Origin: Candidatus Poseidoniales archaeon
Lineage (GTDB): Archaea; Thermoplasmatota; Poseidoniia; Poseidoniales; Poseidoniaceae
Assembly: GCA_038110525.1 (NCBI GenBank)
Contig: JAYNJV010000001.1
Span: 32,355-96,354, forward strand
Length of the DNA stretch: 64,000 nt
Direction: 5' to 3'
The position numbers and the translations under genes are program-made. Below the pieces are notes generated by a model. That model had not been told where the DNA came from and made no database searches. It saw only the letters and a program-made list of their open reading frames with translations. Below are positions 16,238 to 63,512 of this stretch, in pieces; position 1 is the stretch's first letter; each line of letters begins with the position of its first letter.

Positions 16238-16323
16238 GCCGAGATCGCATAGCCTGGTAGTGCGCGCGACTGGAAATCGCGTGGGTTCGTCCCTCGGGAG
16301 TTCAAATCTCTCTCTCGGCGCCA
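16238..16323 (+). tRNA. tRNA-Ser (anticodon GGA), class II with a long variable arm and encoded CCA
   Basis: I folded the cloverleaf by hand. Acceptor GCCGAGA/TCTCGGC, anticodon stem CGCGA/TCGCG, loop CTGGAAA. The variable arm is 14 nt (TGGGTTCGTCCCTC), the T arm is GGGAG-TTCAAAT-CTCTC, and the discriminator G is followed by CCA. The region is GC-rich against an AT-rich background. Confidence 0.85.
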
Positions 16324-16354
16324 CACTTCGTTTGATAGTTGATAGAGCAAAGCG

Positions 16355-16362
16355 GTTAAATC
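16355..16362 (+). promoter_or_regulatory. candidate TATA box for tRNA-Thr
   Basis: GTTAAATC lies 25-32 nt upstream of tRNA position 1. Confidence 0.4.
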
Positions 16363-16386
16363 AAGATGTAAGGTCGCCCACTTGTT

Positions 16387-16461
16387 GCCACCGTGGCTTA
16401 GTGGTATAGCACCTCATTGGTAATGAGGAGGTCGCGAGTTCGATCCTCGCCGGTGGCTCCA
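16387..16461 (+). tRNA. tRNA-Thr (anticodon GGU), encoded CCA
   Basis: Acceptor GCCACCG/CGGTGGC, anticodon stem CCTCA/TGAGG with loop TTGGTAA, T arm GCGAG-TTCGATC-CTCGC, then T-CCA at the 3' end. Confidence 0.9.
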
Positions 16462-21986: not shown

Positions 21987-22697
21987 ATGCGAGTTCATGA
22001 GTTCCATCCTGAAATTTGGGCAAAAGCCTACGGACTTGTATGTGATGAGACGAAATCGATCATTTTAATTGACCCAGTATATGATTACATAGAGCTTTAC
22101 GAGTCTTATCTTTCCGAGCATTCGCTGAACTTACATGCAGTTATTGCAACACATACACATGCAGACCATATCACTGCTTGCTTTACTCTCAAAAATAATT
22201 ACCAGTGCGATTACATTATGCATGAATCAACCGCAAGTTTGGGCGTAACTACTTTTGTTAACGAAGCATCCTCTATTCAATTTGGTGGTCATTCGATTTG
22301 TTTTCACCATGTTCCTGGCCATACCAACGATTCAATGATTGTGGATACTGGGCGTCACCTCTTTACTGGCGATTTTCTTTTCACTGGCGAAGCAGGTGTT
22401 GGACGAGATGACCTTCCAAGTGGAAGGATGGAACACCATTGGAACTCGCTTGCAAAGATGAACAGTCTCAACGGCGAGTCCATCATGTACACCGGACACG
22501 AACCTCCTCATACTGAAATGAAAACATTGGCTTGGAATATGGACAATAATCCAATCTTGAAAATGTCATCTTTTGAGGAATTTGAGCATTGGCAATTTGA
22601 AACAATTGCAAAACTTGGTTCTGTATCGAAAATTAAAACTGCGCTTCCTGCAAATTTATTTGGTGAAGTTCCAGACCACATCCCTTGGTTATCTTAA
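21987..22697 (+). CDS. MBL-fold metallo-hydrolase
   Basis: The HxHxDH motif (ATHTHADHITA) and the downstream His/Asp ligand pattern (HVPGHTNDS, TGDFLF, GH) are present. Confidence 0.8.
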   Translation: MRVHEFHPEIWAKAYGLVCDETKSIILIDPVYDYIELYESYLSEHSLNLHAVIATHTHADHITACFTLKNNYQCDYIMHESTASLGVTTFVNEASSIQFGGHSICFHHVPGHTNDSMIVDTGRHLFTGDFLFTGEAGVGRDDLPSGRMEHHWNSLAKMNSLNGESIMYTGHEPPHTEMKTLAWNMDNNPILKMSSFEEFEHWQFETIAKLGSVSKIKTALPANLFGEVPDHIPWLS

Positions 22698-22716
22698 ACA
22701 AAGTGAGGATGCTTGT

Positions 22717-34746: not shown

Positions 34747-37700
34747 ATGTTCCAAAAAATTCATGCTCAACATTGGAATTATGTCGGCAACCATTTGAAG
34801 AAGGAAGGTCTGGGTACAAATGGTGAGGATTTGAGTTCAGATTCACCTGACGAGAAACTACCTAAGCGAGGTAGTGGCCTTCAGAGGATTGGAGAAATCA
34901 CCGAAAAAAGCAAAAAACATTTTTCGAAGAAAGGGGCTGACCTTGGTCGGAAATTAAAAAAAATGGACTCAAAAACAACAATTGATGCTGTCTTAGAAGC
35001 TCCGAGACGATTTCAACGTGAGTGGCAAAAAACAGGTGCAACAGGAGCCATCACCCGATATCCAATCCCTACAGTGTTGCTATTTTTGCTCCTCACTGGT
35101 TACTTCGTTACTCAATCTGGTTTCCTTGACGACACACGTTTTGATGATGACCCCGATAACCCAGCACTCAATGTAAATGGGGACCTTGAGGTCTACCTCC
35201 CTGAGGGAAGTAAAGTTGCAGAATTGATTGGAAAAGTCGAAGAAGATTGGTCGACAAATGTGATGGTCGTCTACATTGAATCAACGGATAGGAATATTAC
35301 CGACCAGCGAATTCTCCAAGAAATTAGTTATGTTGAAAAGCAAATTAATCCCATTCAAAACGATGAATCTGATGATGTGATTTACATTTTATCACTCTCA
35401 ACGGTACTCAAGGAAGTCAATTCAAGTGCGCCAAGAATCCGAGAAGCATTCATCACTGAGTCTGGTAAACAACTCTGTCCTGGAGGGCAAACTGAAGATT
35501 GTTTGTCAGCAGACCTTGCAAAGCAACTGAATGAAGCATTTGCTTTAACAGATGAACAAATTGGTGGGGCATATGAAATTCCCAGTCAAGATACAATTGA
35601 TTTGGTCGTCAATAACATGTACGAAGATGGCAAACCGAGTGCAGGTCTTGACAAATTGGCTCGAGATGTAGCAGGGGCAGAAGATGGCGGCCCAGATGGT
35701 GTACTAGATCGGGCCATTGTAGCGATTGCAGTTACAGAAAACAGGCCAGCAAAACAAATTATTGAGGAAACTCAAGCATTGCTCGATAACATCTCCAAAA
35801 AAGAGCGTCCTTGCCAATTCAACCAAGATGGAAGTCCGGATGGAGGTCAAGTTTGCACTTGGGATGATTTAGGATTACGAATGACCTTGACAGGGCCTGT
35901 CCCAATTACGAATGCAGTGACAGAATTTTCATTTCGTTTGTTTTGGGAAATTTTTCCACTTGCGGTCGTGTTGGTCGCTATTGGTTTGTTTGTTTTTCAC
36001 TCTGATTTACTTCAATCTGGTCTCACTGGAATTCGACCAATTCAAGGTATAAAGGTCGTCATCATTGCTGGATTACCTACATTGTGTGCTGTATTTTGGA
36101 CCCTTGGAATGATTGGGGCTACCAATTATGAGGTGACGATGACCGTCATCATCGTCGGGCCAATTCTATTAGCACTTGGCGTTTCGTATGGATTACATAT
36201 CACAAATAGATACGCAGAGGAAAAGGGAGAGAAAGCAGAAAAAATGAGGGCCTCCCTTTCTTCGACAGGTCGTGCCGTATTTTTGTCAGCCGTGACCACC
36301 GTCATTGGTTTCATTAGTTTGGTCTTCACCCCCATGGCGCCTATACAAACCGTAGGAATCGCCCTCTCTCTCGGTATTGTGATCGTCTATATTTTGACAA
36401 TTTTCATGGTACCGAATTTAACACTCATTTTAGACTTGCGAAAACCATCACACCCACCATTGAAGGCATTTGATGTCATGGTCGATATTCCAGTCAAAAG
36501 AAATCGATATGTGCTCGTATTCTTTGCTGTACTTATTGCCTTGTCTGCAACAATAGGTCAAGCTAATGTTGAAGAGAACATCGATTTACTTGGCATGGCA
36601 CCTGAAGGTGAATCATCTGTTGTCAAGATGAAGCAATTCAGTAAAGAGTTTGAAGCAGGTCAAGTAGGGATGATTTTAATCGATGCACAAGTGACTGGAA
36701 ATTTGAGGGATTCCGATCCAGCAAACGATGACCCTTATGGTAATTTGGAAAAAATTGAAGGGTTGGAATTGCAACTAAATCAAATTGAAAATACATCTGC
36801 GGTATCCATTGTGTTTCTCATGAAAGCCTCAGGTGTATCTATTGGTGTTTCCTCAAGTGACGCAGCCCAACTCATCAATAACACACCATTGCCTGATGAT
36901 GTTAAGGACTTCGCAAATGCCTTATTTAACCAAAATATTGACGCGAACACCTCGTTTTGGGATATTCTCAAGGCACCTGATTTGTATGGGTTGCCCGGAG
37001 ATGCACAAACTCAAATTTTTCTCCTTGACGTGTTTTATGCTTCACTTACTGATGAGACTCGAGGAATTTTCGTCAACAGCGGGTACAATCGAACGCTTGT
37101 GTATGTTGATATGCCCTTCATCCCTGTAGCAGATACGGCAAAGAGTGTCACCTTGGTCAATGAAGCAGCATTCAATTTCAAAGGTGACCATGGCGAGTCT
37201 GCTGAAGAATTGACTGGTGTTGCTGCAACTGCCATCGAGGTGAATGAACTCATTGTTGGTTCGCAATGGACTTCACTTGGTTTTGCAATTATTCTCACAC
37301 TTATCACCCTTGCAGTTGTGTTTAAGGATATCAAATATTCAATTTGGACCACTTCACCGGTCATTGCTACTGTCGCCTTACAATGGCTTGTCATGTGGCA
37401 AATGGATGTATCACTCTCACTCGTCACCGTCATGATAGGTTCAATTCTTGTTGGGGTAGGGGTAGATTTTTCGATCCACATTGCAAACCGTATCAAAGAA
37501 TTAGGGGGCGGGATTCAAGCCATTCGAAGTGCTGCTGTAGGGACTGGAATGTCGCTCTTTGAGGCAGCCATGGTAACATCATTAGGGCTTTTCACGGCAT
37601 ACAGCATACCGATTCCAGAGATTAAGCCATTTATCACTGTCATTCTAATTTTGCTTTGGGTCGCAGCTGCCAGCGCGTTAATATTATTGCCAGCAATCTT

Positions 37701-37842
37701 TGTTACGTTAGAAAAGTTGGGCATTGGTGCTGTTGATGGTGCTCCGAGCATGGCTCGAAAGTTAGGACTTCAAAAGAAGACGGCTAAAGAATACGATGTC
37801 CTCGATGCAGAATTACAAGGGAAAATTGTTGATGCATGGTGA
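34747..37842 (+). CDS. RND-superfamily (MMPL/SecDF-like) membrane transporter
   Basis: The topology is two-fold: one TM, a large loop, five TM, one TM, a large loop, five TM. The start is uncertain (ATG 34747 or ATG 34963). Confidence 0.7.
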   Translation: MFQKIHAQHWNYVGNHLKKEGLGTNGEDLSSDSPDEKLPKRGSGLQRIGEITEKSKKHFSKKGADLGRKLKKMDSKTTIDAVLEAPRRFQREWQKTGATGAITRYPIPTVLLFLLLTGYFVTQSGFLDDTRFDDDPDNPALNVNGDLEVYLPEGSKVAELIGKVEEDWSTNVMVVYIESTDRNITDQRILQEISYVEKQINPIQNDESDDVIYILSLSTVLKEVNSSAPRIREAFITESGKQLCPGGQTEDCLSADLAKQLNEAFALTDEQIGGAYEIPSQDTIDLVVNNMYEDGKPSAGLDKLARDVAGAEDGGPDGVLDRAIVAIAVTENRPAKQIIEETQALLDNISKKERPCQFNQDGSPDGGQVCTWDDLGLRMTLTGPVPITNAVTEFSFRLFWEIFPLAVVLVAIGLFVFHSDLLQSGLTGIRPIQGIKVVIIAGLPTLCAVFWTLGMIGATNYEVTMTVIIVGPILLALGVSYGLHITNRYAEEKGEKAEKMRASLSSTGRAVFLSAVTTVIGFISLVFTPMAPIQTVGIALSLGIVIVYILTIFMVPNLTLILDLRKPSHPPLKAFDVMVDIPVKRNRYVLVFFAVLIALSATIGQANVEENIDLLGMAPEGESSVVKMKQFSKEFEAGQVGMILIDAQVTGNLRDSDPANDDPYGNLEKIEGLELQLNQIENTSAVSIVFLMKASGVSIGVSSSDAAQLINNTPLPDDVKDFANALFNQNIDANTSFWDILKAPDLYGLPGDAQTQIFLLDVFYASLTDETRGIFVNSGYNRTLVYVDMPFIPVADTAKSVTLVNEAAFNFKGDHGESAEELTGVAATAIEVNELIVGSQWTSLGFAIILTLITLAVVFKDIKYSIWTTSPVIATVALQWLVMWQMDVSLSLVTVMIGSILVGVGVDFSIHIANRIKELGGGIQAIRSAAVGTGMSLFEAAMVTSLGLFTAYSIPIPEIKPFITVILILLWVAAASALILLPAIFVTLEKLGIGAVDGAPSMARKLGLQKKTAKEYDVLDAELQGKIVDAW

Positions 37843-45099: not shown

Positions 45100-48000
45100 A
45101 TGAGTAGTCGGAGTGATTGCACAGATGCGCGGGGTATGTCAATGAGTTTAAGTCCTAATCAAATGGCGTATATCTCAATAGTTTCAACTTTGATTTTTGG
45201 TTCACTCTTCGTGGGCGTTTCAGGGTTTTATCAAACCAATGAAGGACTTGGTGGTTTTGACAGTGCCCTCGAAGAAAATATTCAGGGGCAAGGAGAAGAT
45301 TATTACGATTCACCTGACACTGATGGCGATGGACTTTCAGATAAACTTGAAGAAACCCAATACGGTACAGACCCCATGAATCCTGATACAGATAACGATG
45401 GTATGAGCGATGGTTGGGAGGTTGCTCATGGGCTCAATCCATTGGACAACGGAGAATCCCAAGATTTGGAAAATGACCCAACAAGTGATACAGAAACTGA
45501 TGACGCAAAGGTCGAGAATGAAACTGATTCATGGCCAGACCCTAATCAAGGGCCAAATGGGGATCCTGACAGAGACGGACTCACAAATAAAGTCGAAGAA
45601 GAACTTGGCACCGACCCTCAGCGTGCAGATACAGATAACGATGGACTCAATGATAAATGGGAATCACTTTACACTATGGTTGTCCAAACTCCGGGTGGCG
45701 ACATTACCCTCTTTAATCCACTCAATGGAAACTGGGATTGTATCCTGCTTGATTCCGCAATGCGAGAAGCATTGATGCAAAAGTATGATGGTCAAGATGG
45801 TGCGTTGAATTGGATGGACTTAGCAACAAATAATCGACATTCATGTGACATGGTTCTTGACTCCGACAACGACGGACTTGCCAACTTTGAAGAAGAAATG
45901 TATGGGACAAACCCAACTGCCCGAGATTCCGACATGGATCTTATCGATGATATCGTTGAAGTTGCAAATTCCACCATCCTCCTCAAGAAAGGTTTGGGAG
46001 AACAATGCAATAGGGGTCTTGTTGAATTTATTGAGACCACTGGTCCATTTTACGGATTCGACACATCTTGGTTTAGACAAGATATGGATGGAGATGGTAA
46101 GTTAAATGGCCCATCCGATTGGGATACTGACGGCGATGGAATGCCCGATGGCTTTGAATTCTGTTATTCAAAATCGAACCTTGCACCAAACAAAGATTCC
46201 TCAAAAACGCTTGACCCTGCAAATTCATCTGATGGATACAATGACTGGGATGAAGATGGACTCAACAATGTCGAAGAGTACATGGTGGCTCAGATTTTCG
46301 GAGAAGATAATTTCACATCTCCATGGCGTATGGATACCGATGAAGACGATATGCCTGACCAGTGGGAAGCTGCTAATGGTTTACACCCAAGGGACAGCAG
46401 CAATTTTGACAAAGACCCCGACATGGATGGGTGGGACACAGATGGTGATGGAGCTGTCCGATATGATACGCTTGAATTGACGGCTGTAGTGTACAGTGTT
46501 GATGTTATCTTAGGTCAAGAAGTCCTTGCTAATCAAACGGTTGCGAGGGCCCGAATAACTCTCGGGGGTGGCAATCAACAAATCATCCCATTGTTATCGC
46601 CAGTTGATGGTTATGTGTATGATATCAATGTCATGAACGGCGATACTGTCGAATCTCGTTTGTTCACATGGATGACCATCGTCGAAGAGCATGAGCGATT
46701 CACCAATCTCATGGAATACCAAGCACGTGACCGTGATGGTGATGGTATCCTTGATGGCAGAAGCACCAACCCTCTTGTTGCAGATACCGATGGTGACGGT
46801 CTCATCGATGGTATTGAAGTTCTTGGCTGGGAAATTCTTGTGATTAACCGGGGCGTTCAGGAGACTTGGGTGACTTCTGATCCTGGTCTCTATGATACCG
46901 ACATGGATGGACTCTCAGATTACGAGGAATTTTCATCAACATGTGATGGTGGCTCAAATGCATCGAATCCTGATACAGATTCAGACGGATTAACTGACCT
47001 CCAAGAAGCAGGTGATAATTTCCAGTGGGAGGGCGTTCCATACTCGACAAGCCCATGCATGTTTGACACTGACAATGATGGTCTCGAAGATGGTGAAGAA
47101 GTGATCGCTGGCGAAGATAATTTCTTAACACACGCAAACAAATCAGATACGGATGATGATGGTCTTGTCGATGGTCAAGAAGTTCTCTATGTACCAAGAC
47201 CTTTCCAGAATCCAACAAACCCACTCATCAATGATACAGATGCAGATGGTATGTTGGATGGCTGGGAGATGCAAGTAAAATCTGCTGAAGATAATACAAA
47301 TTCACACAGTCTTTGGGTAACGACATCAACATGGCTACGTCCAGGTTGTGAAGTTTCTCAAACTTCTTCATGCACAATGGAGCCAGGCGGCTATGTTTGG
47401 CAAAATTGGCTTGGCGGTTTCGTTCTCGAACCAAAATTCCAAGTAAGCGAAATGAATTTGACAGGTTTCTCAATGCCAAGCAATCAAAAATGTGATGGCT
47501 GTAATGGGCGTTGGGCACTTGACCCCTCGTTAGGCTCGCTTCCCGATGATGTTTTTGATGTTGATAATGATACCTTACTCAACAGTGCTGAAGCACCTGA
47601 CAGATGGAACACAAATCCGGTGGATGACGATACAGACGGAGACTTACTCCCTGATGGATGGGAAGTCTCTTACTCCGAATTAGCGTTTGATTTGGGCTTG
47701 GTTGACAATCAATCTCTAAGTGCTAATGGAGCCCGTGGTGTGATGGACCCCGCTATGAAAGATAGTGACTTAGACGGAATTAATGATGGTGAAGAGGACC
47801 CCGACCATGATGGATTGAATCGTACAGGACTCATCAAGAAATATTGTCCAGGTTACAATGATACTTCAAACTCAGAATGTAATATCGATCCAGACACACC
47901 AGATGGACAACGGTTCTATAACAACCTTGAAAATTATACCAATTTTGAAGAAATGCAAAATGGAACAAATCCTGTTCGGAATGATACAGATGGTGACGAG

Positions 48001-48225
48001 TGGAATGATGGACCCGAAGTCTATTATCAAGACCATGATGGTGATGGTATGGCAACAGGTTGGGAATATCACTTCCAATTTGATCCATACGATGCCGCAG
48101 ATAGAATGGTAGACACCGATGGAGATGGTCATGTCAATTACTGTGAGTACAAGTGGGACACAAACCCAAGAAACCCCGTATCATTCCCAGGACAAGGAGA
48201 ACTCTGCGATCCATTTGAATCATGA
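45100..48225 (+). CDS. N-terminally anchored surface protein made almost entirely of thrombospondin-type-3-like calcium-binding repeats
   Basis: The N-terminal TM is YISIVSTLIFGSLFVGVSGF. More than 25 copies of DxDxDG[LM]xDxxE follow (for example DTDGDGLSDKLEE, DTDNDGMSDGWE, DTDNDGLNDKWE, DTDGDGLIDGIE). The protein is extremely acidic. Confidence 0.8.
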   Translation: MSSRSDCTDARGMSMSLSPNQMAYISIVSTLIFGSLFVGVSGFYQTNEGLGGFDSALEENIQGQGEDYYDSPDTDGDGLSDKLEETQYGTDPMNPDTDNDGMSDGWEVAHGLNPLDNGESQDLENDPTSDTETDDAKVENETDSWPDPNQGPNGDPDRDGLTNKVEEELGTDPQRADTDNDGLNDKWESLYTMVVQTPGGDITLFNPLNGNWDCILLDSAMREALMQKYDGQDGALNWMDLATNNRHSCDMVLDSDNDGLANFEEEMYGTNPTARDSDMDLIDDIVEVANSTILLKKGLGEQCNRGLVEFIETTGPFYGFDTSWFRQDMDGDGKLNGPSDWDTDGDGMPDGFEFCYSKSNLAPNKDSSKTLDPANSSDGYNDWDEDGLNNVEEYMVAQIFGEDNFTSPWRMDTDEDDMPDQWEAANGLHPRDSSNFDKDPDMDGWDTDGDGAVRYDTLELTAVVYSVDVILGQEVLANQTVARARITLGGGNQQIIPLLSPVDGYVYDINVMNGDTVESRLFTWMTIVEEHERFTNLMEYQARDRDGDGILDGRSTNPLVADTDGDGLIDGIEVLGWEILVINRGVQETWVTSDPGLYDTDMDGLSDYEEFSSTCDGGSNASNPDTDSDGLTDLQEAGDNFQWEGVPYSTSPCMFDTDNDGLEDGEEVIAGEDNFLTHANKSDTDDDGLVDGQEVLYVPRPFQNPTNPLINDTDADGMLDGWEMQVKSAEDNTNSHSLWVTTSTWLRPGCEVSQTSSCTMEPGGYVWQNWLGGFVLEPKFQVSEMNLTGFSMPSNQKCDGCNGRWALDPSLGSLPDDVFDVDNDTLLNSAEAPDRWNTNPVDDDTDGDLLPDGWEVSYSELAFDLGLVDNQSLSANGARGVMDPAMKDSDLDGINDGEEDPDHDGLNRTGLIKKYCPGYNDTSNSECNIDPDTPDGQRFYNNLENYTNFEEMQNGTNPVRNDTDGDEWNDGPEVYYQDHDGDGMATGWEYHFQFDPYDAADRMVDTDGDGHVNYCEYKWDTNPRNPVSFPGQGELCDPFES
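45316..48175 (+). repeat. in-frame array of TSP3-like DxDxDGxxDxxE coding repeats (interrupted)
   Basis: Repeated DNA words such as gatacagataacgatgg occur at ~45379 and ~45630. The peptide repeats are listed under the CDS. Confidence 0.75.
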
Positions 48226-48241
48226 TGGAATAGTGTAACTC

Positions 48242-49732
48242 ATGGCCCGACTAAAAGTAACACTCATTCTTTTTGTGTTTCTTTTGCCTATGATTCCAAA
48301 TGGTTCTTCTGTAAATGGGCCATCCATCACATTTGAGCAAGAACATGGATATTTTATTACAAATTCAAATGTAAATTTATCGGGATTTTCAAACATTGAG
48401 ATGAAGAAAGCATCATGGAAACTTTGGGATGTGAGTAGTCCTTCATTAACAACATTGGTTGAGTCGGGAGACCACATGACGACAGTTTCACCTATCAGTG
48501 ATTATTTTTGGCAATGGAATCTACAATTTGAGGTTCAAAATTTAAATTGCACATGTTACCTCATTATTTCTGTCCCTGATGGCATTGATGTCATTCAATC
48601 AAACATCTTGTTGTATATCGGTGAAAGAAATCATCGGCCTGAAATCATGTTGCCACATTCGCTTGAATCATCTTTCACCTCACAGAACAGGATATTACTT
48701 TCAAAGCTTGATGCGATTGTAACTCTCAAAGCTTTTGTGCCTTCGGGTATGTTATCCGATGCAAATCTTGTTGCAAATATATGTGAATCACCTTATTGGG
48801 TTTGTCTCCAAGAACGAATTCAAATGCCATTGAATTTTACAACCAATGGCAATGATTTATCAATTTCTTTGAATTCAGACACATTTAATTTAGATGATGG
48901 AATTTGGGATTTTGAATTAATTCTCATCGATGAACTTCTTGTCTACTCTGCTCCTATTCATCTTCAGATTCACATCGACACTCAACTTCCTCACATTGAA
49001 CTTGAATTTGACACAAATCAAAAAGAAAATAATCAATTTTCCGTGTTTGCAAATATCGATGATGGCTACACTGGTTCAAGTGAGGTTCTCACTTGGATGC
49101 TTCGAACTCCTTCGGGTGATACTCGAGCACTATCCTCAAATGAAATTATAGACGAAAACCGCCTTGAACTGAATTTAAGCGTTCCCGGTTCGTATACTCT
49201 TGAAGTCCTTGTGCGAGATTCTGCGGGACATTTTAATCGAAGCAATAGAACATTTGTTGTTGAAGATGTTGAGCCAATTGCTGAAATATATTTTGATACA
49301 ATGAAACTTGCTTCCGGTATCACATTAGAAGCTAAATTTGGAGGAGATTGGGTTATCCAAACACAGCCAAATGGAAATCTTGATCCTATGACTGTTTCCT
49401 GGAACATACTATTTCCGAATGGTGAGGTTATGATCTATTCGGGGGAACTGATGAATTCAAGCGTTTTTACAACTGAAGGAACATATGTTCTCACTTTGCA
49501 GGTTTCTGACGACGAAGGTGGTACATCATCGTCTACGTTTCAACTGAATCTTATTCATTCCAGTAGCGATTCTTCTTCAAAAACCGTAGATGCGATGTTT
49601 GCTGGTATACTTCTTCTATCAATTGTGTTTGTTTTTCTTGTCGTGTATAATTTGAATATGAAAAAGAAAGGAAAGTCGTCAACTGAATTGCCTAAATGGT
49701 CTGGAGATGATGAGTCAAGGAAGTATAGTTGA
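48242..49732 (+). CDS. secreted Ig/PKD-like repeat protein with a C-terminal TM anchor
   Basis: Signal peptide MARLKVTLILFVFLLPMIP. PKD-like strands are present (YTLEVLVRDSAGHFNRSNRTFVV; YVLTLQVSDDEGGTSSSTFQLN). The C-terminal helix FAGILLLSIVFVFLVVY is followed by KKKGK. Confidence 0.7.
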   Translation: MARLKVTLILFVFLLPMIPNGSSVNGPSITFEQEHGYFITNSNVNLSGFSNIEMKKASWKLWDVSSPSLTTLVESGDHMTTVSPISDYFWQWNLQFEVQNLNCTCYLIISVPDGIDVIQSNILLYIGERNHRPEIMLPHSLESSFTSQNRILLSKLDAIVTLKAFVPSGMLSDANLVANICESPYWVCLQERIQMPLNFTTNGNDLSISLNSDTFNLDDGIWDFELILIDELLVYSAPIHLQIHIDTQLPHIELEFDTNQKENNQFSVFANIDDGYTGSSEVLTWMLRTPSGDTRALSSNEIIDENRLELNLSVPGSYTLEVLVRDSAGHFNRSNRTFVVEDVEPIAEIYFDTMKLASGITLEAKFGGDWVIQTQPNGNLDPMTVSWNILFPNGEVMIYSGELMNSSVFTTEGTYVLTLQVSDDEGGTSSSTFQLNLIHSSSDSSSKTVDAMFAGILLLSIVFVFLVVYNLNMKKKGKSSTELPKWSGDDESRKYS

Positions 49733-49775: not shown

Positions 49776-51158
49776 ATGGTCATGTTCGCAGAAGCACTCG
49801 AGAGGCTGCCTCATGAGCCTGAACCCGTTCTTAATAGCGAATATCGAGGTAGGCAAGGAAAGTTGTTTTCTCATTTTTCAAGTGGTGATTTATTCATTTT
49901 GCCAGCACCACATGAGGCCACTCATTCAAACGATGTCCATTATCGGTATCGAACATCAAGTGATTTCATCTATTTGACAGGCTGGGTTGAACCGGAGGCA
50001 GTTTTCGTAGCAAGGCACGACAAGGAATCCGAAACATGGATTTCCTCGTTGTTTGTTCAACCCAAGAACACTTTGATGGAAATATGGGAAGGACGTCGCC
50101 CAGGGGTTGAAGGAGCGTTAGCAAACTACCCAATTGATGAGGCGTATTCAATCGATGATTTGCGAGAAAAGTTAAACGATTTTTTGGTCGATACGAAGAG
50201 AGTTTTTCTTCGAACCGGAGTTATTGATAACATTGATGACCTTGTTACTCATGCTATTCAAAGAAGAGATAGAAATCGGCAACATTTCGGTAGCGGGCCA
50301 ATCGGAATTGAAGACCCATCACCATATCTTGCGGAATTGCGACTCATTAAAAGTTCATCAGAAATTTCACAGATGAGGTATGCAGCACAAGTCTCAAGTT
50401 TAGCACATGAATTAGCGATGCGTTTGCAGCAACCAAATTTGAATGAACGTCATCTGCAATCAATTATTGAAGGTTTTTTCACATATGCACATTGCTCTGG
50501 ATGGTCATATCCATCTATTGTTGGTTGTGGGGAAAATGCAACAATTCTACATTACAGAGCAAACAATGCCCCATGCGAAGATGGTGATGTAGTTCTCATC
50601 GATGCTGGTTCGGAATACAGAGGATATGCAGCGGATATCACAAGGTCGTGGCCTGTCTCTGGAAAATTTACGGAAGCACAACGAAGTTTGTATCAAATTG
50701 TTTTAGATTCACAAAAAGCAGCGATTGAACAATGTGTTGCAGGAAATTCTTACACCGCTCCTCATGAAGCTGCACGACGCGTTCTCGCCCAAGGCCTAAT
50801 TGATTTGGGTATCATCGAACAATCACTTGATGATGCACTTGATCTGGAAACAGGTGAATTACGAAAATGGTACATGCACAACACAAGTCATTGGATCGGA
50901 TTAGATGTTCATGATGTTGGAATTTACAAGCCAGATGGAAGTCCACGACTGCTTGAGCCTGGCATGGTGTTGACCATTGAGCCCGGCTTATATTTTGGGG
51001 CTTGGAGACCAGATGTCGATTGTCCTCCAAAATATGCAGATATTGGTATTCGTATCGAAGACGATGTGCTAATCACCGAAAATGGACCGGATGTGCTTAC
51101 AAAAGATTGTCCCAAAGAAATTAATGAATTGGAGTCCATTATCGGTCAAGGAATTTAG
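49776..51158 (+). CDS. pepP: Xaa-Pro aminopeptidase (M24B)
   Basis: The AMP_N-like motif YRTSSDFIYLTGW is present. Metal-ligand motifs are DGDVVLIDAGSEYRGYAADITR, HWIGLDVHD, LTIEPGLY and IRIEDDVLIT. Confidence 0.9.
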   Translation: MVMFAEALERLPHEPEPVLNSEYRGRQGKLFSHFSSGDLFILPAPHEATHSNDVHYRYRTSSDFIYLTGWVEPEAVFVARHDKESETWISSLFVQPKNTLMEIWEGRRPGVEGALANYPIDEAYSIDDLREKLNDFLVDTKRVFLRTGVIDNIDDLVTHAIQRRDRNRQHFGSGPIGIEDPSPYLAELRLIKSSSEISQMRYAAQVSSLAHELAMRLQQPNLNERHLQSIIEGFFTYAHCSGWSYPSIVGCGENATILHYRANNAPCEDGDVVLIDAGSEYRGYAADITRSWPVSGKFTEAQRSLYQIVLDSQKAAIEQCVAGNSYTAPHEAARRVLAQGLIDLGIIEQSLDDALDLETGELRKWYMHNTSHWIGLDVHDVGIYKPDGSPRLLEPGMVLTIEPGLYFGAWRPDVDCPPKYADIGIRIEDDVLITENGPDVLTKDCPKEINELESIIGQGI

Positions 51159-51168
51159 GCGTGATAAT

Positions 51169-52350
51169 ATGCAGTGGCAGGAGATTCTTGCGCGGCAAGC
51201 AACATGGACAAGGGATATCAGTCAAAATCTTCGTTTGTCATCAACTGAAGCAGTTGACCTCTACACAAATGCTCCTCTCCATTCTCTCATGCAAGCAGCT
51301 CATCATCGACGAATGGTTATGCACCCAACTGGTTATGTCACATATTTAGTTGATAGAAACATCAATTACACAAACGTATGTACAATCAATTGCCAATTTT
51401 GTTCCTTCTATCGCCCACCGAAGCATACAGAAACTTACACCCAAACATATGAACAAATTTCTCAACGAATTACTGAACTTGAATCCATTGGTGGGACGCG
51501 AATTTTAATGCAAGGTGGCGTTAATCCAGAGTTACCATTCGATTGGTATACTGATTTGATTCGATTATTGAGAAAAAAGCATCCTTCGATTGACCTCGAT
51601 TGCTTTAGTCCCATTGAAATTGAGGGGATAGCAGAAGTATCTGGCAAATCAACTTTAGATGTTTTGACTTTGCTCAAAGACGCAGGTATGCACGGCCTTC
51701 CTGGCGGTGGTGCAGAGATGCTTGTTGACAATGTGAGAAAAGATGTTTCACCAAAAAAGGGTTCTCCAGCAAATTGGTTGCGAGTCATGCAAGAAGCTCA
51801 ATCGATTGGTTTGACAACCAGTGCCACAAATGTGTTTGGCTTCGGTGAAACACTTTCTGACAGAATTGAACACATGAGTAAAATTCGAGAGTTACAAGAT
51901 CATTCATTATCTCATTACGGAAAAGCGTTCACCTCATTTATTGCATGGCCAGTTCAATTGGAGGTCAACACATTTGGAAAGAGAAATCGCGGAAGAAATC
52001 GATTCGAATTGGGAGCTGGTTCAACAGAATACCTACGACACGTCGCAGTATCTCGATTATTCCTTGATAATGTCGAACACATACAGGCTTCGTGGCCGAC
52101 CATGGGAATGAAAATTGCCCAAATGGCAATGATTGCAGGTGCAGATGATGCAGGTTCAACAATGATGGAAGAAAATGTGGTTTCAGCCTCCGGAACGAAA
52201 AAAGTAGAAGCAACCGAGATCGAATTGCAAACATCAATCGTACGTTCAGGATTGAAACCGATGAAGAGAGATAGCGATTATAACCATCTTGAAACGGTCA
52301 TTTTTTCTAAATCAAGAGAAGAATTAGCTTCTCCACCGCCATCGCTTTAG
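51169..52350 (+). CDS. radical SAM enzyme of the CofH/MqnC/MqnE family
   Basis: The family-typical context is DRNINYTNVCTINCQFCSFYR (CxxxCxxC), followed by ILMQGGVNPEL and SPIEIEG. I cannot discriminate futalosine-pathway enzymes from the FO-synthase subunit by eye. Confidence 0.8.
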   Translation: MQWQEILARQATWTRDISQNLRLSSTEAVDLYTNAPLHSLMQAAHHRRMVMHPTGYVTYLVDRNINYTNVCTINCQFCSFYRPPKHTETYTQTYEQISQRITELESIGGTRILMQGGVNPELPFDWYTDLIRLLRKKHPSIDLDCFSPIEIEGIAEVSGKSTLDVLTLLKDAGMHGLPGGGAEMLVDNVRKDVSPKKGSPANWLRVMQEAQSIGLTTSATNVFGFGETLSDRIEHMSKIRELQDHSLSHYGKAFTSFIAWPVQLEVNTFGKRNRGRNRFELGAGSTEYLRHVAVSRLFLDNVEHIQASWPTMGMKIAQMAMIAGADDAGSTMMEENVVSASGTKKVEATEIELQTSIVRSGLKPMKRDSDYNHLETVIFSKSREELASPPPSL

Positions 52351-55300
52351 GTTGTTGAAGTGTAGAATACAACATAAATGACCGCTCGAATTTGTCGTTC
52401 GCCGTTTCCGACTCCATCGGAAGGCACATATTCCTGCCCATTATACAATCCACGATAATCAAGTGTGTATTGATAATTTGAATTCCCTGCTTGGGATAAA
52501 TCAAGCCAATCTGAAATATCATATCTCCATTGTTTTACATCTTGCCCTGCACACCAGCCGGCACGTCCAAAAGGCCAAGAGCCAAATTGATTTGCAACAA
52601 CACCATTGTTCACTTCATTTTCGCATCCTTCGCTTGAATATACAATCGGGTGCCACTCGTAAGCAGTATGCTGGGTACTATTGTGGGTGAGATAATAGTG
52701 GTGTTCATGGTCACAAAATTCCGCACAATTCGCATTATCTTTACCAAACCCATGGCCTGTGACCGTTGCAACAATTTCAACTTTTGTGGTCGAGGCAGGC
52801 ACTGAAAAATTCAAACTTCGAAGATATCGTGATTCATTGTTGTAGGTTCCATCGAATTGACCACCTGAAAATGCGTAAGTCGCATCATGAGACCGCTCTG
52901 CTGAGCCCCAATTACTGAATAGGAATTTTACAGTTAAATCGCCTTTGTTTGCTCCGCCATATTTGAATCGCCTATCTTGGCCGTCATCAAGCATAAACAA
53001 GTATGGGGAAATATCCGTGAGCCACTGACCTTCTCTACCATAGGTTGTAATCCATCGTACCATTTCTGTTGAACACGAAGAGGAGTTATTTTCATCACAA
53101 ATGTAGAGGTTCGCTAAATAGTCCCATTCGTGACATCCACCATACGAACCATCGCTGTTTTGGTATCGATTCTTTCGTTCAAAACATGCATGTTCGTGAT
53201 ACACCTCCAGTGTGTCATATGCAGAGATTTCATTCTCGAGGTCAATTGTTGCATTTGAAAAAGAAGAAAATCCACTTGACCAGCCACCTACGTGTCTTGA
53301 AAAATCAAAGATTGTGACCACTTCAACTGCAGGGTCGGATTCCCTCATCTTGACTGGAAATTCCGTATTCCATTGATGAGGTTCGTAGGTCAAATGTTTT
53401 GGATCATTGGATTGTGTAGTCCATGCATACAGGGAACCAGTTTCACGAGCCTGTTGGAATCGATCAATACCGAAATAGAGAGGATTGTTAAATGAAGAAA
53501 TGATGTTTCCCAGACCCCCTTGTGCATTGCTTACATCCATATCGATGTAGTGAATTCTTGAGTTCCAATGCGATTCTTCTTCTGAAGATAATGCGGTTAA
53601 GACCGCAGATTTTCTGTTGACAACATCACTATGGTATGATGAATCAAATGAGCCAAAGAACAATTGTGTATTTAATGGCAACCGTCGAATAAATGTTCCA
53701 GGATTTTGAGCCCATGTTCCTGAATTTGAATTTCCTGAGCCATCTGTATACTTGAACATGAAGAAGTATACATCATCACCAGACCACTCATTTTGAAAAT
53801 TATATGTTCCATCAAGAGTAGGTATGCTAAATTGAGGAACGATTTGCATTGGCCCATTCAAAGTTGAAGCACTTGTAAATGGAATCGATTCTTGAATCAC
53901 TGCACATCCGACAGCATTGACTGACCACCGCTGCGGAGAATTTGGACACTGATCTACATTTGAAAAGACTCCATCACCGTCAATGTCAGCACATCCTACA
54001 GCATTGACTTGGTTTCCAAAAGGCGTTCCTGGACATTGGTCTTCTGCGTCATTTACTCCATCTTGGTCAGTATCTCTTTCGACAGCTGCACAACCAAATT
54101 CATCAACATCTACTGATCCAATTGGGGTGAAAGGACACATATCCAATTGGTCTCCCGTTCCATTTACATCCGTTACCCCATCGTTATCATCGTCTAAATC
54201 CTCTTGCTGGTCGTGACAGCCATCGTTGTCAAAATCGGTTTGACTTGATGCAGTCCACCCTATGATGCCCTTTGGGCAATCATCAACCGTGTCATTGGAA
54301 TCATCATTGTCGTCGTTATCATCCTCGTCAATGTCTTCACAACCATCGCTATCCCAATCGCTGTAAAAATTTGAAGCCCAACCCGAACGACCAACAGGGC
54401 AGAGGTCATTGACATCGAGTACACCATCTCCATCGTCGTCTTCATCCTTATTCGCATCATGACAACCATCAGAATCATGGTCAGAATCAGGCGTGCTCGT
54501 CCAGCCGACATCATCTGGGCATTGGTCGTACAAATCAATGACACCGTCATTATCATCGTCATAATCTTCGTCAAAATCCCGACAACCATCCGCATCGAAA
54601 TCAGTTGATGTGGATGAAATCCATCCATCATTTTCACCAACACCCTCGGGACAACGGTCAATGGTGTCCTCTACTCCATCTCCATCTTGGTCATTGGTAT
54701 CGAATTCAGGAATAACTTGTATTGAATATTGACTTGTTTTCTGGTTTTGTGAGCCACAAGTTACCGTTAAATCAACAACAACAGATTCCTTAATTTTTGT
54801 AAAATCGAACAATGCTTTCCATCTTCCATCCTCGTCGAGCTCAATCGTGCCTTCATCACCTAAGATGGTGTATTTCAAAGTACAACTTGAAACATCAGCA
54901 TGTATTGCTTTACCTTCGATCCATACAATATCTGGCTCCTCCAAGAAGAGTGTTGCAGGATATTCAAGGAGTGGTGCATCTTGCTGGGCTTCAAGTGTAG
55001 TTATTGTGGCTAAAAAATCATAATCTTTCAAGAGCAAACCTGAGTTTTCTCCTTCTCTTATACTAATTTTGATTTGATAATCACCAACTTTCTCAGGTGT
55101 GAATTGTAGGTAATAGATGTTTGAAGTTTGAGTCCAGTTGAACTCTGTTATTTGAGAAATCGATGGACTGATAATAAGGGGCTCAACCGAAACAGTGATG
55201 ACAGGTTCAATTTGTAGTGTGAATGATAATCTTGCATCATCTCCAAGTGTCACCTCATTTGTTAAAGTAATCCAAGTAATTTCAACCGAACTTGGTTGAA

Positions 55301-55460
55301 CCTCGATTGGATCAATTTCTTTGTCAATCTCTTGCTCAACAGAAGAAGTACACCCTGCCAAAAGCATAATAGAAACGAAAAAAAGTGCTGAGGATGCTCG
55401 CCTTCCCATAATTTTGCTATGTTGTTGACGCTCATCAAGTTGTTGTTTGATGTTCATCAT
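52347..55460 (-). CDS. lipoprotein: Ig-like N-terminal region, Cys-containing TSP3-like repeats, unknown middle domain and a C-terminal PNGase F-like domain
   Basis: Lipobox signal MGRRASSALFFVSIMLLAGC. Tandem modules of the form DDDNDGVxD..CP..GW.S....D.D.DGC.D follow. The C-terminal ~320 aa carry CHEWDYLANLY, NCAEFC and GRAGWCAGQDV. These match CDEWDRYANVY, GCAEWC and DRAGWCPGMAV of Elizabethkingia PNGase F as I remember it. The start is either 55460 or Met 55409. Confidence 0.8.
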   Translation of the reverse strand: MMNIKQQLDERQQHSKIMGRRASSALFFVSIMLLAGCTSSVEQEIDKEIDPIEVQPSSVEITWITLTNEVTLGDDARLSFTLQIEPVITVSVEPLIISPSISQITEFNWTQTSNIYYLQFTPEKVGDYQIKISIREGENSGLLLKDYDFLATITTLEAQQDAPLLEYPATLFLEEPDIVWIEGKAIHADVSSCTLKYTILGDEGTIELDEDGRWKALFDFTKIKESVVVDLTVTCGSQNQKTSQYSIQVIPEFDTNDQDGDGVEDTIDRCPEGVGENDGWISSTSTDFDADGCRDFDEDYDDDNDGVIDLYDQCPDDVGWTSTPDSDHDSDGCHDANKDEDDDGDGVLDVNDLCPVGRSGWASNFYSDWDSDGCEDIDEDDNDDNDDSNDTVDDCPKGIIGWTASSQTDFDNDGCHDQQEDLDDDNDGVTDVNGTGDQLDMCPFTPIGSVDVDEFGCAAVERDTDQDGVNDAEDQCPGTPFGNQVNAVGCADIDGDGVFSNVDQCPNSPQRWSVNAVGCAVIQESIPFTSASTLNGPMQIVPQFSIPTLDGTYNFQNEWSGDDVYFFMFKYTDGSGNSNSGTWAQNPGTFIRRLPLNTQLFFGSFDSSYHSDVVNRKSAVLTALSSEEESHWNSRIHYIDMDVSNAQGGLGNIISSFNNPLYFGIDRFQQARETGSLYAWTTQSNDPKHLTYEPHQWNTEFPVKMRESDPAVEVVTIFDFSRHVGGWSSGFSSFSNATIDLENEISAYDTLEVYHEHACFERKNRYQNSDGSYGGCHEWDYLANLYICDENNSSSCSTEMVRWITTYGREGQWLTDISPYLFMLDDGQDRRFKYGGANKGDLTVKFLFSNWGSAERSHDATYAFSGGQFDGTYNNESRYLRSLNFSVPASTTKVEIVATVTGHGFGKDNANCAEFCDHEHHYYLTHNSTQHTAYEWHPIVYSSEGCENEVNNGVVANQFGSWPFGRAGWCAGQDVKQWRYDISDWLDLSQAGNSNYQYTLDYRGLYNGQEYVPSDGVGNGERQIRAVIYVVFYTSTT
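53901..54701 (-). repeat. tandem ~45-aa cysteine-containing TSP3-like coding modules
   Basis: Protein residues ~254-520. Four clear modules are followed by shorter CP/GC variants (DTDQDGVNDAEDQCPGTPFGNQVNAVGC, DIDGDGVFSNVDQCPNSPQRWSVNAVGC). Confidence 0.75.
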
Positions 55461-56592
55461 TTAACTCAATTCGACCATCATGAATTGTGATGTGGTTAAT
55501 ACTTATTTTTTCAATGGGGTAATGGACCTTTAGTGGTTGAACGTAGTACAGTGGAGCGAGTTCATTTCGATGAATTGTTATGATGCACTCCCAATGGATT
55601 CGAATGAGGTCGGTACAGGTTGTTCCAGGCCAAATGGTCGGCGGGGGAGCTAATGACAAAACTTCTCCCTCCTTCCAAGGTAAACTTTGACCTCTTTCGC
55701 AAATCCTCATTGGGCGAAGAAACAGTCCCCCACTCACCAGTCGCGAATCCATAGGGGCATCTTCACCGCCAGCAGTCCCATCATCAAGACTCGCTTCCCA
55801 ATGGTGTGGTAATTCGGTTGAAAGACCAGGTGGTGGTTGCATTTTTTCTGTTCTTTGATGTGCAGCGAGTAAAGCCTCTCTTGAGGGGGGTAATATTCCG
55901 ACTTGCCAAGATACTTCGACATCCCCCCAGTGTTCGCCCCAATATGGAAAACCAATAGAAATTTCAAGATTCGAATCCGAGGAAGTTTGTGAATGAAAAA
56001 CGATGTGTGGATTTTCGATTTCTGCCTTGAGAAATTTTTGTTGAGCCCTAAGGTCTGAAAAGTTTCCATATACTCTCATGAAAATAGGTGCAAACAGTAG
56101 CGGAACCACAAGGAATGCTAACAATGGGTAATCAAGTAAACCAAATCGGATGGTTTGAGTGCCTAAACCGGGTATTCCAAATGTTGCAAGCACTGGTTCA
56201 ATGAATAAGTACATGAGACATATCAAAAGCACAATGACAGAGAATTTAATCATCCTTCGAACCAAAGAGTGAATTGGGTGGGGATGTAAATACCAACCTC
56301 TTCTTTGGCGTTTGACGATTGTGGGAAATTTGCTTGTGTCAATAAATTGTGTTTTCCTATCGACATCAATTTTTTCCCCATTGTAGAAATATTCGTGTTT
56401 GACAAACCAAGAATTTTCATCTCCGATTTTGAATGATGGATGGACGGTTTCAAGTTTCTTTTTGACTTCCTCGATGGTTTGAAATTGACCCAAATGTTCC
56501 GTGTGAACTGCGATTGGAATGAATTCTGGATTCCAACGGGACGAATCAAAGGGGGGAAACCTAATTTTAGACACAGATTCTAAATCAACCAA
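55435..56592 (-). CDS. membrane protein (hypothetical)
   Basis: 385-aa ORF. Its central pair/trio of TM helices includes FSVIVLLICLMYLFIEPVLATF and LLAFLVVPLLFAPIFM. No motif recognised. It overlaps the start of the downstream lipoprotein ORF by 26 nt. Confidence 0.55.
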   Translation of the reverse strand: MVDLESVSKIRFPPFDSSRWNPEFIPIAVHTEHLGQFQTIEEVKKKLETVHPSFKIGDENSWFVKHEYFYNGEKIDVDRKTQFIDTSKFPTIVKRQRRGWYLHPHPIHSLVRRMIKFSVIVLLICLMYLFIEPVLATFGIPGLGTQTIRFGLLDYPLLAFLVVPLLFAPIFMRVYGNFSDLRAQQKFLKAEIENPHIVFHSQTSSDSNLEISIGFPYWGEHWGDVEVSWQVGILPPSREALLAAHQRTEKMQPPPGLSTELPHHWEASLDDGTAGGEDAPMDSRLVSGGLFLRPMRICERGQSLPWKEGEVLSLAPPPTIWPGTTCTDLIRIHWECIITIHRNELAPLYYVQPLKVHYPIEKISINHITIHDGRIELNDEHQTTT

Positions 56593-62701: not shown

Positions 62702-62720
62702 GACCCTCTTGAACGAGCGT

Positions 62721-63020
62721 CGGGATAGGTGGGGAGCTCGGCGTACCCTACATCACAAATCGTCGTTATGGTGGACCGAACGCCTTGGGGCGGCGAGAGC
62801 GGGCCCTTGGTTTCCACATGCGGACGTTGATGTCTCGCCCCCACATGACCTGGGTGTCTTGAACCGTATCCGGAAGGAAACGGGAATGGAATAACCGGGG
62901 GACTAGGTCAGGCCGGGAACGGAGCAGCCCTACCTGGGGCCATGGGTGCTGTGGGGTAACGGGATGGAGAATGTGTGTGGGCTTGGCCGAGGGCAACGAG
63001 CGTCCACCTTTGGCCCTCCC
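62721..63020 (+). ncRNA. signal recognition particle RNA (archaeal 7S RNA)
   Basis: This is a ~300-nt GC-rich island in AT-rich DNA. The 5' AGGUGGGGAGCUCGGC pairs with the 3' GCCGAGG...CCACCU (helices 1/2). A helix-6-like CCGGAAGG hairpin lies at ~62870. The conserved helix-8 motif GGUCAGGCCGGGAACGGAGCAGCC lies at ~62906-62929. An ATTTT tract follows. Confidence 0.85.
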
Positions 63021-63023
63021 ATT

Positions 63024-63512
63024 TTACACATCAAAGATAACTTGGCTAATCCATGCTGGTCCAGCAATTTCAGGAATTGATTTGTCTACATGGAAATATG
63101 ATTCGTTTGCATTTAGAAAGCGAACAAAATTGTCGTGAGATGTCACTGCTTTAATTTCAGTTTCTGGGACAATCTCATTTGAATCAACGTATACTACATC
63201 TGCGAAAATCTTGCAACCATCCATTGTATGTTGAATAGAAATCTTTCCATCAAGATACAATTGGTTTTGAATTTCTCTACGAAATAATATTTCATCAAGC
63301 CATCTCAACAGAATCATTTCCTTGTCAATATGTCCGTCAAATGTGGAATTCCATTGACCCTGGCGTATTTTTTGATGGTCTTCGAGGGAGTTTAATTGGG
63401 GTGATAGAATTGACATCATCCCCTTCGTAGACTGATCTATGAGTTCTTCAAAAGTTGGTGAGAAACTAAACACACCTACATCTGCAGTCGTTGGAAATTG
63501 AATAAATCCCAA
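63024..63512 (-). CDS. archease (RtcB activator)
   Basis: The N-terminal FPTTADVGVFSFSPTFEELIDQSTKGMMSIL compares with canonical F.HTADIG..A.G.TLEELF..AA.GM. The C-terminal EIKAVTSHDNFV compares with IKAVTYH. Confidence 0.8.
   Translation of the reverse strand: MGFIQFPTTADVGVFSFSPTFEELIDQSTKGMMSILSPQLNSLEDHQKIRQGQWNSTFDGHIDKEMILLRWLDEILFRREIQNQLYLDGKISIQHTMDGCKIFADVVYVDSNEIVPETEIKAVTSHDNFVRFLNANESYFHVDKSIPEIAGPAWISQVIFDV

Follow-up and report, generated by a model that had tools for sequence, protein, structure and literature searches.

The window analysed here is a stretch of 64,000 nucleotides (nt) from contig JAYNJV010000001.1 of a Candidatus Poseidoniales archaeon, and the gene under study is an open reading frame (ORF) on its minus strand (52347..55460 in the ORF listing), which encodes 1037 amino acids (aa) when counted from the first ATG and whose stop codon lies at 52347-52349. 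As judged from its sequence, the tip of the gene product is an intact peptide-N-glycosidase F (PNGase F)-type domain, with a match far beyond chance. The whole protein is read as a lipid-anchored surface amidase that would strip N-glycans from exogenous glycoproteins by PNGase F-type catalysis, a reading to which a probability of roughly 0.65 is assigned. Marine Group II archaea (Poseidoniales) are uncultured, outnumber all other archaea in surface seawater and are thought to live on phytoplankton proteins and lipids; to our knowledge, their handling of glycosylated proteins has not been described. An initial annotation of the window had proposed that a lipobox protein of this planktonic archaeon ends in a PNGase F-like domain. 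This is borne out by the Pfam family PF09113, by a family profile, by structural matches obtained with Foldseek, by an archaeal signal recognition particle (SRP) RNA and by the lipobox itself.

The PNGase F-type domain and its catalytic residues

The amidase domain, predicted to consist of two jelly-roll beta-sandwiches, occupies aa 710-1037 (52350..53333, minus strand), which is the envelope of the PNGase domain hidden Markov model; the initial annotation had given 52347-53318, covering aa 715-1037. Within it, the Pfam model N-glycanase_C (PF09113) matches aa 877-987 at E = 7.6e-18, with 65.1 bits against a cut-off of 25. As a single sequence searched with phmmer against PDB sequences, the protein matches the zebrafish entry 'Si:dkey-256h2.1' (9lwg) at 1.4e-45 over aa 708-1033. 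A family profile, built from an alignment of 66 homologues and run with hmmsearch against PDB sequences, recovers 9lwg at 3.4e-106 along both the thioredoxin-like (Tx-like) and the PNGase domains, and PNGase F itself (1pgs, 1pnf and 3pms) at about 4e-19 over chain residues 5-277, with both jelly-rolls covered. In hhalign, the probability of the match to PNGase F is 98.7%.

The fold agrees with these alignments. The AlphaFold2 model of aa 521-1037 has a mean predicted local distance difference test score (pLDDT) of 93.5 and a predicted template modelling score (pTM) of 0.92, and two consecutive eight-stranded jelly-roll beta-sandwiches are present in this model. Its best matches in the PDB, as ranked by Foldseek, are all PNGases (9lwg, 3pms, 1pgs, 1pnf, 4r4x, 7zgn and 3ks7). 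The match to 9lwg has E = 5e-37 and a template modelling score of 0.78 on the query (TMq), and those to 3pms, 1pgs, 1pnf and 1png have E values from about 1e-17 to 4e-16, target-based scores (TMt) of 0.71-0.74 and some 350 aligned columns.

Three residues of the PNGase F active site can be placed from the alignments, and both the family profile and hhalign give the same pairings. The segment GGCHEWDYLANLYI aligns to TCDEWDRYANVYV of PNGase F, so that D780 (codon at 53121..53123, minus strand; motif C-H-E-W-D-Y) corresponds to D60 of PNGase F and to D421 of the zebrafish enzyme Ngly2. NCAEFC aligns to GCAEWC, which pairs E914 (52719..52721, minus strand) with E206 of PNGase F and E555 of Ngly2, and C912/C916 with C204/C208. 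EGC...GRAGWCAGQDV aligns to LGC...DRAGWCPGMAV, which pairs R966 (52563..52565, minus strand; motif G-R-A-G-W-C) with R248, and C946/C970 with C231/C252. All the motif pairs quoted in the initial annotation (for D60, E206, R248 and two disulfides) were thus reproduced, and its count of 257 aa from D780 to the C-terminus is correct as stated. In addition, W779 corresponds to W59 of PNGase F, W969 to W251 and C759/C776 to C51/C56. The cysteine pairs C759/C776, C912/C916 and C946/C970 are conserved and align with the disulfides of PNGase F, the bonds themselves being predicted, and a further conserved pair is formed by C788 and C796.

These residues hardly vary across the family. None of the 66 diverse family members departs from D780, E914, R966, W779, H903 or W969. 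Among Poseidoniales, D780, E914, W779, H903 and the eight cysteines are identical in 81 of 81 sequences, in which W969 is invariant too, and R966 is identical in 80, the remaining sequence being gapped at this column. Such constancy bears on the proposal that the domain is a catalytically silent glycan-binding head, a lectin or adhesin by which the cell would attach to glycoprotein-rich particles or algal surfaces. A stalk of thrombospondin type 3 (TSP3) repeats is typical of adhesins, the neighbouring genes encode other large surface proteins with TSP3 or PKD domains, many adhesion-type proteins are found in Poseidoniales, and the archaeal domain is without loops that matter for how PNGase F and Ngly2 handle their substrates. 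A pure lectin would, however, be free to lose its catalytic residues, and D780, E914 and R966 are kept without exception by the 66 family members, as they are throughout the Poseidoniales sequences wherever those columns are occupied. The lectin proposal is accordingly left with a slender chance.

Around the catalytic residues the picture changes. The motif FSNW (aa 848-851), which had been put forward as the counterpart of the E118 motif (YTETW) of PNGase F, aligns instead with I133-G136. E118 itself aligns with the variable G835 in the family profile, or falls within a six-residue insertion of PNGase F (E118-K123) in hhalign, the E118 loop being absent from the archaeal protein. Y781 stands at the position of R61 in PNGase F and H422 in Ngly2, and H903 at that of W191 in PNGase F, where it corresponds to H546 of Ngly2, the histidine of the TGHG motif. 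The lack of E118, R61 and W191 is not disqualifying, because Ngly2, an active enzyme, is without them as well. By alignment, then, the catalytic core is intact, and the surroundings that determine specificity differ from those of both studied enzymes, PNGase F and Ngly2.

Domain architecture, predicted surface anchoring and known relatives

From the perspective of its domain organization, the nearest characterised relatives of the protein, according to the profile comparisons, are those of the Ngly2-type family and not PNGase F of Elizabethkingia. The structure 9LWG is that of Ngly2 from zebrafish, the acid PNGase of fish eggs that had long been sought (Honda et al., J Biol Chem 2025, PMC12753239), which is composed of a CxxC-less Tx-like domain, a PA domain and a PNGase domain, and which forms a homodimer via its Tx-like domain and its PA domain (PMC12753239). 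The chain index of 9lwg equals the numbering of that paper plus 25, as derived from the profile alignment together with the paper. The archaeal protein and Ngly2 agree in the order of their modules, with a CxxC-less Tx-like domain, a linker helix and a PNGase domain of two jelly-rolls. They also share the catalytic Asp and Glu (D421/E555, equivalent to D780/E914), the TGHG-motif histidine (H546, equivalent to H903) and the extra cysteine pair in the CD..C loop. They differ in two positions near the active site, H422 being replaced by Y781 and W480 by G836, and in their general form, since Ngly2 is a soluble lysosomal homodimer, whereas the archaeal protein would be a lipobox-anchored surface protein on a stalk of about 480 aa.

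PNGase F of Elizabethkingia meningoseptica (1PNF, 1PGS and 3PMS; EC 3.5.1.52) has in common with the archaeal protein the two-domain jelly-roll fold, the residues D60, E206, R248, W59 and W251, the disulfides C51-C56, C204-C208 and C231-C252, and a nearly equal length from the catalytic Asp to the C-terminus. The identity between the two is, however, only about 17-22%, and the archaeal protein, which is not matched by the Pfam model of the N-terminal domain, lacks the E118/W120 loop, has Tyr in place of R61 and His in place of W191, and carries the extra pair C788/C796; PNGase F, in turn, has no Tx-like domain, no stalk and no such lipobox. More distant still are PNGase F-II (4R4X/4R4Z), PNGase L (7ZGN) and the putative PNGases of Bacteroides (3KS7 and 4QHB), which share the superfamily fold (Foldseek E = 1e-10 to 1e-13) at 11-13% identity and a TM-score of about 0.4, and which have another N-terminal accessory domain and no Tx-like domain.

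The bacterial 'peptide-N-glycosidase F-related proteins' of Myxococcota and Bradymonadia (among them P0043 of Vulgatibacter, P0049, P0075 and P0076) contain the same Tx-like and PNGase module, with the same invariant residues and 30-43% identity over 90-100% of aa 491-1037. They differ from the archaeal protein in being mostly 550-750 aa long and without the long beta-rich and TSP3 stalk, and some bacterial relatives have a PA domain (P0103 and P0118) or an EGF-like segment (P0040). The statement in the initial annotation that enzymes of this type are known mainly from Bacteroidota is too narrow for the family, which comprises 561 clusters at 50% identity (E <= 1e-30 among 1.84 billion representatives), whose named bacteria are Myxococcota and Bradymonadia and for which metazoan orthologues have been reported (PMC12753239).

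The Tx-like domain and its linker helix extend over aa 521-709 (53334..53900, minus strand). In the AlphaFold2 model the domain shows an alternating beta/alpha pattern, with a long helix at model residues 167-188. According to Foldseek, its fold resembles those of DsbE and further thiol-disulfide oxidoreductases (TMt 0.45-0.54), and it also matches the Tx-like domain of 9lwg, in which the family-profile alignment begins at chain residue 79. It contains no cysteine, hence no CxxC, and is predicted to be redox-inactive. Two of its residues, H637 (53550-53552, minus strand) and D666 (53463-53465, minus strand), do not vary in any of the 66 family members, whether bacterial or archaeal, or in any of the 81 Poseidoniales sequences, which suggests a conserved functional site or interface beyond the role of a scaffold.

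Between this head and the N-terminus lies a putative stalk in two parts. The proximal one (aa 38-250; 54711..55349, minus strand) is beta-rich and of uncertain fold, with a weak BatD/DUF11-like Pfam match at aa 68-131 (E = 0.011, below the cut-off). The distal one (aa 251-520; 53901..54710, minus strand) is acidic and contains cysteines, and corresponds to TSP3-like calcium-binding repeats: nine DxDxDGxxD motifs, found by regular expression, start between aa 257 and 463; the Pfam TSP_3 and NCBIfam TSP3-repeat protein models match, all below threshold; and phmmer matches an OmpA-family TSP3 protein (5wtl) and COMP (3fby). The N-terminal half is 36-66% identical among orthologues and diverges more than the catalytic half.

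The protein begins with a signal peptide and lipobox read from the sequence as MGRRASSALFFVSIMLLAG-C (aa 18-37; 55350..55409, minus strand). The lipobox, LLAGC, fits the pattern [LVI][ASTG][GAS]C after a positively charged region and a hydrophobic helix, and ends in Cys37 (55350-55352, minus strand). The true start is probably M18, an ATG at 55407-55409 (minus strand) that would give 1020 aa, and not the first ATG. A start at M1 places 17 residues ahead of a canonical signal peptide (55407-55460, minus strand) and creates an overlap of 26 nt with the upstream ORF, which ends at 55435. A start at M18 creates none and yields a standard 20-residue lipoprotein leader, and the orthologues likewise begin about 20 aa before the lipobox cysteine. 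The 1020-aa GenBank version MDA0716410.1, which belongs to the same 90% cluster as the window protein, starts at M18. The exact window protein is deposited as MEK9730181.1, 'MAG: peptide-N-glycosidase F-related protein [Candidatus Poseidoniales archaeon]', an automatic label by the Prokaryotic Genome Annotation Pipeline (PGAP) that is already correct and agrees with the initial annotation.

Conservation of the lipobox was followed in a scan of one genome per GTDB species, which returned 491 relatives and of which the best 80 were used for loci, gene order and lipobox counts. An L[AS]GC-type lipobox stands at the same place in 63 of these 80 orthologues under a strict regular expression. Most of those that fail it are cut at a contig end or carry SAGC or TSGC, and in two (L003 and L077) the initial 90 aa of the called ORF contain no lipobox. 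Among full-length copies, nearly all have this cysteine behind a short leader that is charged and hydrophobic. The lipobox is missing from every other large secreted protein of the 64-kb window. Sec export is likelier than twin-arginine translocation (Tat), because the two arginines of the signal peptide are not conserved in the orthologues; Tat export was rejected on this ground. Cys37 would be lipid-modified and would tether the protein to the outer face of the membrane, leaving it exposed on the cell exterior, a location with which the disulfide-rich domain is consistent.

Proposed activity and competing explanations

In the proposed mechanism, the Sec-type signal peptide with its lipobox cysteine would fix the protein to the membrane, and about 480 residues of beta-rich segment and calcium-binding TSP3-like repeats would project outward a distal head made of the Tx-like domain joined through a helix to the PNGase F-type domain. 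D780 would act as D60 does in PNGase F, as the primary catalytic residue, and E914 as E206, stabilising the intermediate, while R966, W779, H903 and W969 would line the pocket for the chitobiose core. Mutagenesis cited in PMC12753239 has established these roles of the Asp and the Glu in both PNGase F and Ngly2, the Ala mutants of D421 and E555 in Ngly2 and of the equivalent residues in PNGase F being inactive (PMC12753239). By analogy, the amide bond between Asn and N-acetylglucosamine (GlcNAc) would be cut, the whole N-glycan released and the Asn converted to Asp. The substrates would be exogenous glycoproteins or glycopeptides, for example those of phytoplankton, and their deglycosylation would open them to the extracellular peptidases of the organism and perhaps supply it with glycans.

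A different substrate is implied if the enzyme trims or turns over the N-glycans of the cell itself, on the S-layer or on other envelope proteins. The conserved lipobox, which ties the protein to the cell's own membrane, speaks for this, as does the presence of a single-copy gene at a conserved housekeeping locus and not in a nutrient-acquisition operon; the absence of the E118/W120 loop and of an equivalent of W480 would, moreover, permit a non-eukaryotic glycan core. Yet a stalk of about 480 residues would keep the head distant from the membrane, many bacteria with no known synthesis of N-glycoproteins possess this catalytic module too, and the chitobiose-pocket residues W779, R966 and W969 are kept. 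Turnover of the cell's own glycans is considered unlikely overall.

The altered surroundings of the active site could alternatively reflect PNGase F-like chemistry with a new specificity, that is, an amidase for another amide-linked glycoconjugate, for which bacterial or archaeal N-glycans with linking sugars other than GlcNAc, or glycosylated small peptides in dissolved organic matter, are candidates. Y781 in place of R61/H422, H903 in place of W191 and the deletion of the E118/W120 loop fit such a change, as do the lack of a PA domain and the uncharacterised state of the branch. Nevertheless, H903 is common to Ngly2 (as H546), which cleaves ordinary chitobiose-core N-glycans (PMC12753239), and positive evidence for another substrate is lacking. 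A new substrate class of this kind has a small chance of being correct.

Several observations weigh against the lipid-anchored N-glycan amidase itself. The initial annotation had pointed to the Pfam models of both PNGase F domains, of which the C-terminal one matched as described above and the N-terminal one, N-glycanase_N (PF09112), found no match in the protein at E <= 1, although the N-terminal sandwich still aligns to PNGase F residues 5-140 in the family profile and in hhalign; a scan of the protein against NCBIfam likewise matched no PNGase model. The E118/W120 loop, which contacts the substrate in PNGase F, is missing, and W480 of Ngly2, whose Ala mutant is nearly inactive (PMC12753239), aligns to G836, which is invariant in Poseidoniales. 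The PA domain, which is inserted in the Tx-like domain of Ngly2 and forms one wall of its substrate cleft (PMC12753239), has no counterpart in the archaeal protein (no PF02225 match), and the PA region of 9lwg is an insertion relative to the family profile. Ngly2, the only characterised member of the Tx-like and PNGase branch, is lysosomal and active at acid pH only (PMC12753239), and no enzyme assay is on record for any archaeal or bacterial member. The geometry proposed for the catalytic residues is drawn from alignments and global fold scores. Among the neighbours in the window, which are housekeeping and surface proteins, there is no glycan-uptake or glycosidase operon. Lastly, the phylogeny described below is a neighbour-joining one over 295 columns, in which most sequences carry no taxon label.

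A more far-reaching claim would be that all Poseidoniales carry an active surface PNGase, the first archaeal one, with a specificity of its own and a neutral or alkaline pH optimum due to the Y781/H903 pocket and the missing E118/W120 loop, which would serve as the entry step to phytoplankton N-glycoproteins. This claim is tentative, the odds being somewhat against it. If true, it would reveal an overlooked route by which organic nitrogen and carbon are turned over in the sea, one that matters quantitatively, and provide a new reagent-grade PNGase. Short of that, the conserved surface PNGase offers a concrete and testable biochemical handle on the substrate range of Poseidoniales, and the prokaryotic Tx-like and PNGase branch represents an untapped source of PNGases, possibly with new specificity or pH behaviour. 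The finding is a solid lead into glycoprotein handling by abundant planktonic archaea and no surprise in kind.

What is already known includes the domain family, its fold, its chemistry and the automatic name of the protein. In the open-access literature, no paper was found that links PNGase or PF09113 to Poseidoniales, and none that deals with PNGase F-type enzymes of archaea; the article in which the Ngly2 family was defined speaks of orthologues in bacteria and of none in archaea (PMC12753239). Relative to the literature searched, three elements are new: the Ngly2-type module in Archaea, its presence at the same locus in every recovered Poseidoniales genome, and the lipobox-anchored, stalked surface form.

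Distribution, history and genomic context

The best 80 of the 491 relatives are all labelled as Poseidoniales or with higher archaeal ranks (Methanobacteriota, Thermoplasmatota archaeon). Their catalytic half, taken as the full 517-aa module, is 53-98% identical, and over the same loci the neighbouring radical S-adenosylmethionine (radical-SAM) gene is 60-97% and topoisomerase I 46-75% identical; the catalytic half is about as conserved as these housekeeping neighbours. The gene order is that of the window in every one of the best-80 loci that has flanking DNA. On one side, the order is topoisomerase I, a geranylgeranyl-reductase-like gene, a conserved 385-aa putative membrane protein and the PNGase gene; on the other, in convergent orientation, it is a CofH/MqnC-like radical-SAM gene, an M24 aminopeptidase, a PKD protein and a large TSP3 protein. 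A second, divergent archaeal clade, at 43-47% identity, includes a protein labelled Thalassarchaeaceae, and its member P0022 lies at the same locus.

A neighbour-joining tree of the PNGase domain was computed from 107 sequences and rooted on PNGase F. The archaeal sequences are monophyletic in 100 of 100 bootstraps, and in 98 of 100 their clade lies nested within bacterial sequences, of which those with a name belong to Myxococcota and Bradymonadia. The inter-domain gene transfer suspected in the initial annotation is thus supported, as an ancient event and not as a peculiarity of one genome. In the simplest history, a single transfer from a bacterium to an archaeon took place before the Poseidoniales diversified, and was followed by vertical inheritance under purifying selection. 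The early date follows from the shared gene order of the best 80 and from the second archaeal clade at the same locus. The gene would represent a clean case of an ancient bacteria-to-archaea transfer that entered the core genome.

One sequence that is nearly sister to the archaeal clade, P0035, is found in a compact bacterial context (L082, 1-14226) that includes an OmpA-domain gene. Next to its PNGase-related gene are a GH1 glycosidase, an acetylesterase gene of the pectin-acetylesterase family, and genes for a Laminin_G_3 protein and an IgGFc-binding-like protein. Such a setting resembles one of glycan degradation and has no counterpart at the archaeal locus.

The distribution also bears on a trivial explanation, namely that the gene belongs to a bacterial contaminant in an archaeal bin or was acquired very recently by a single strain, as could be suspected for a family that is otherwise bacterial and metazoan (PMC12753239). 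An archaeal SRP RNA at 62718-63024 (plus strand, 123 bits) lies on the same contig and within 10 kb of the PNGase gene. This RNA indicates that the window is archaeal, as do a family-B DNA polymerase, RtcB and the geranylgeranyl-reductase-like flavoprotein. The same gene order recurs in the best 80 GTDB matches, among which are presumably single-cell genomes, as suggested by isolate names such as AH-287-P07 and AG-461-G23. The guanine-plus-cytosine content of the gene is close to that of the window (0.416 versus 0.425), and the archaeal clade is monophyletic as stated. The SRP RNA, the synteny, the base composition and the monophyly together refute contamination or recent transfer, to which next to no credence is left.

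The gene directly upstream of the PNGase gene and co-oriented with it encodes the 385-aa protein (55435-56592, minus strand), some segments of which look hydrophobic and may span the membrane; Pfam has no match for it. The gene is kept in place in 70 of the 80 Poseidoniales loci, at 32-70% identity, and may be co-transcribed with the PNGase gene. On the other side, the CofH/MqnC-like radical-SAM gene (51082-52350, plus strand) is convergent with the PNGase gene and shares four bases with it at the 3' ends (52347-52350), which leaves no space for an intergenic terminator.

Further surface or adhesion proteins are probably encoded in the same conserved syntenic block of Poseidoniales by the genes for a 1041-aa protein with bacterial-type TSP3 repeats (PF18884, 4e-28; 45100-48225, plus strand) and for a 496-aa PKD-domain protein (48242-49732, plus strand), both without a lipobox. 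An 892-aa subtilase with an internal hydrophobic leader (Peptidase_S8, 2e-38; 22573-25251, plus strand) is a candidate extracellular protease that could act downstream of deglycosylation, and its presence in the window was counted in favour of the proposed role of the PNGase in a proteolytic lifestyle. Elsewhere in the window are found a secreted giant protein of 1921 aa with FG-GAP, CARDB and NPCBM-associated (NEW3) domains (731-6496, minus strand), which adds to the large surface proteins and possibly carries a glycan-related module, a 1031-aa MMPL/RND-type transporter with a sterol-sensing-like segment (34747-37842, plus strand), and the genes for tRNA-Ser(GGA) and tRNA-Thr(GGT) (16238-16461, plus strand).

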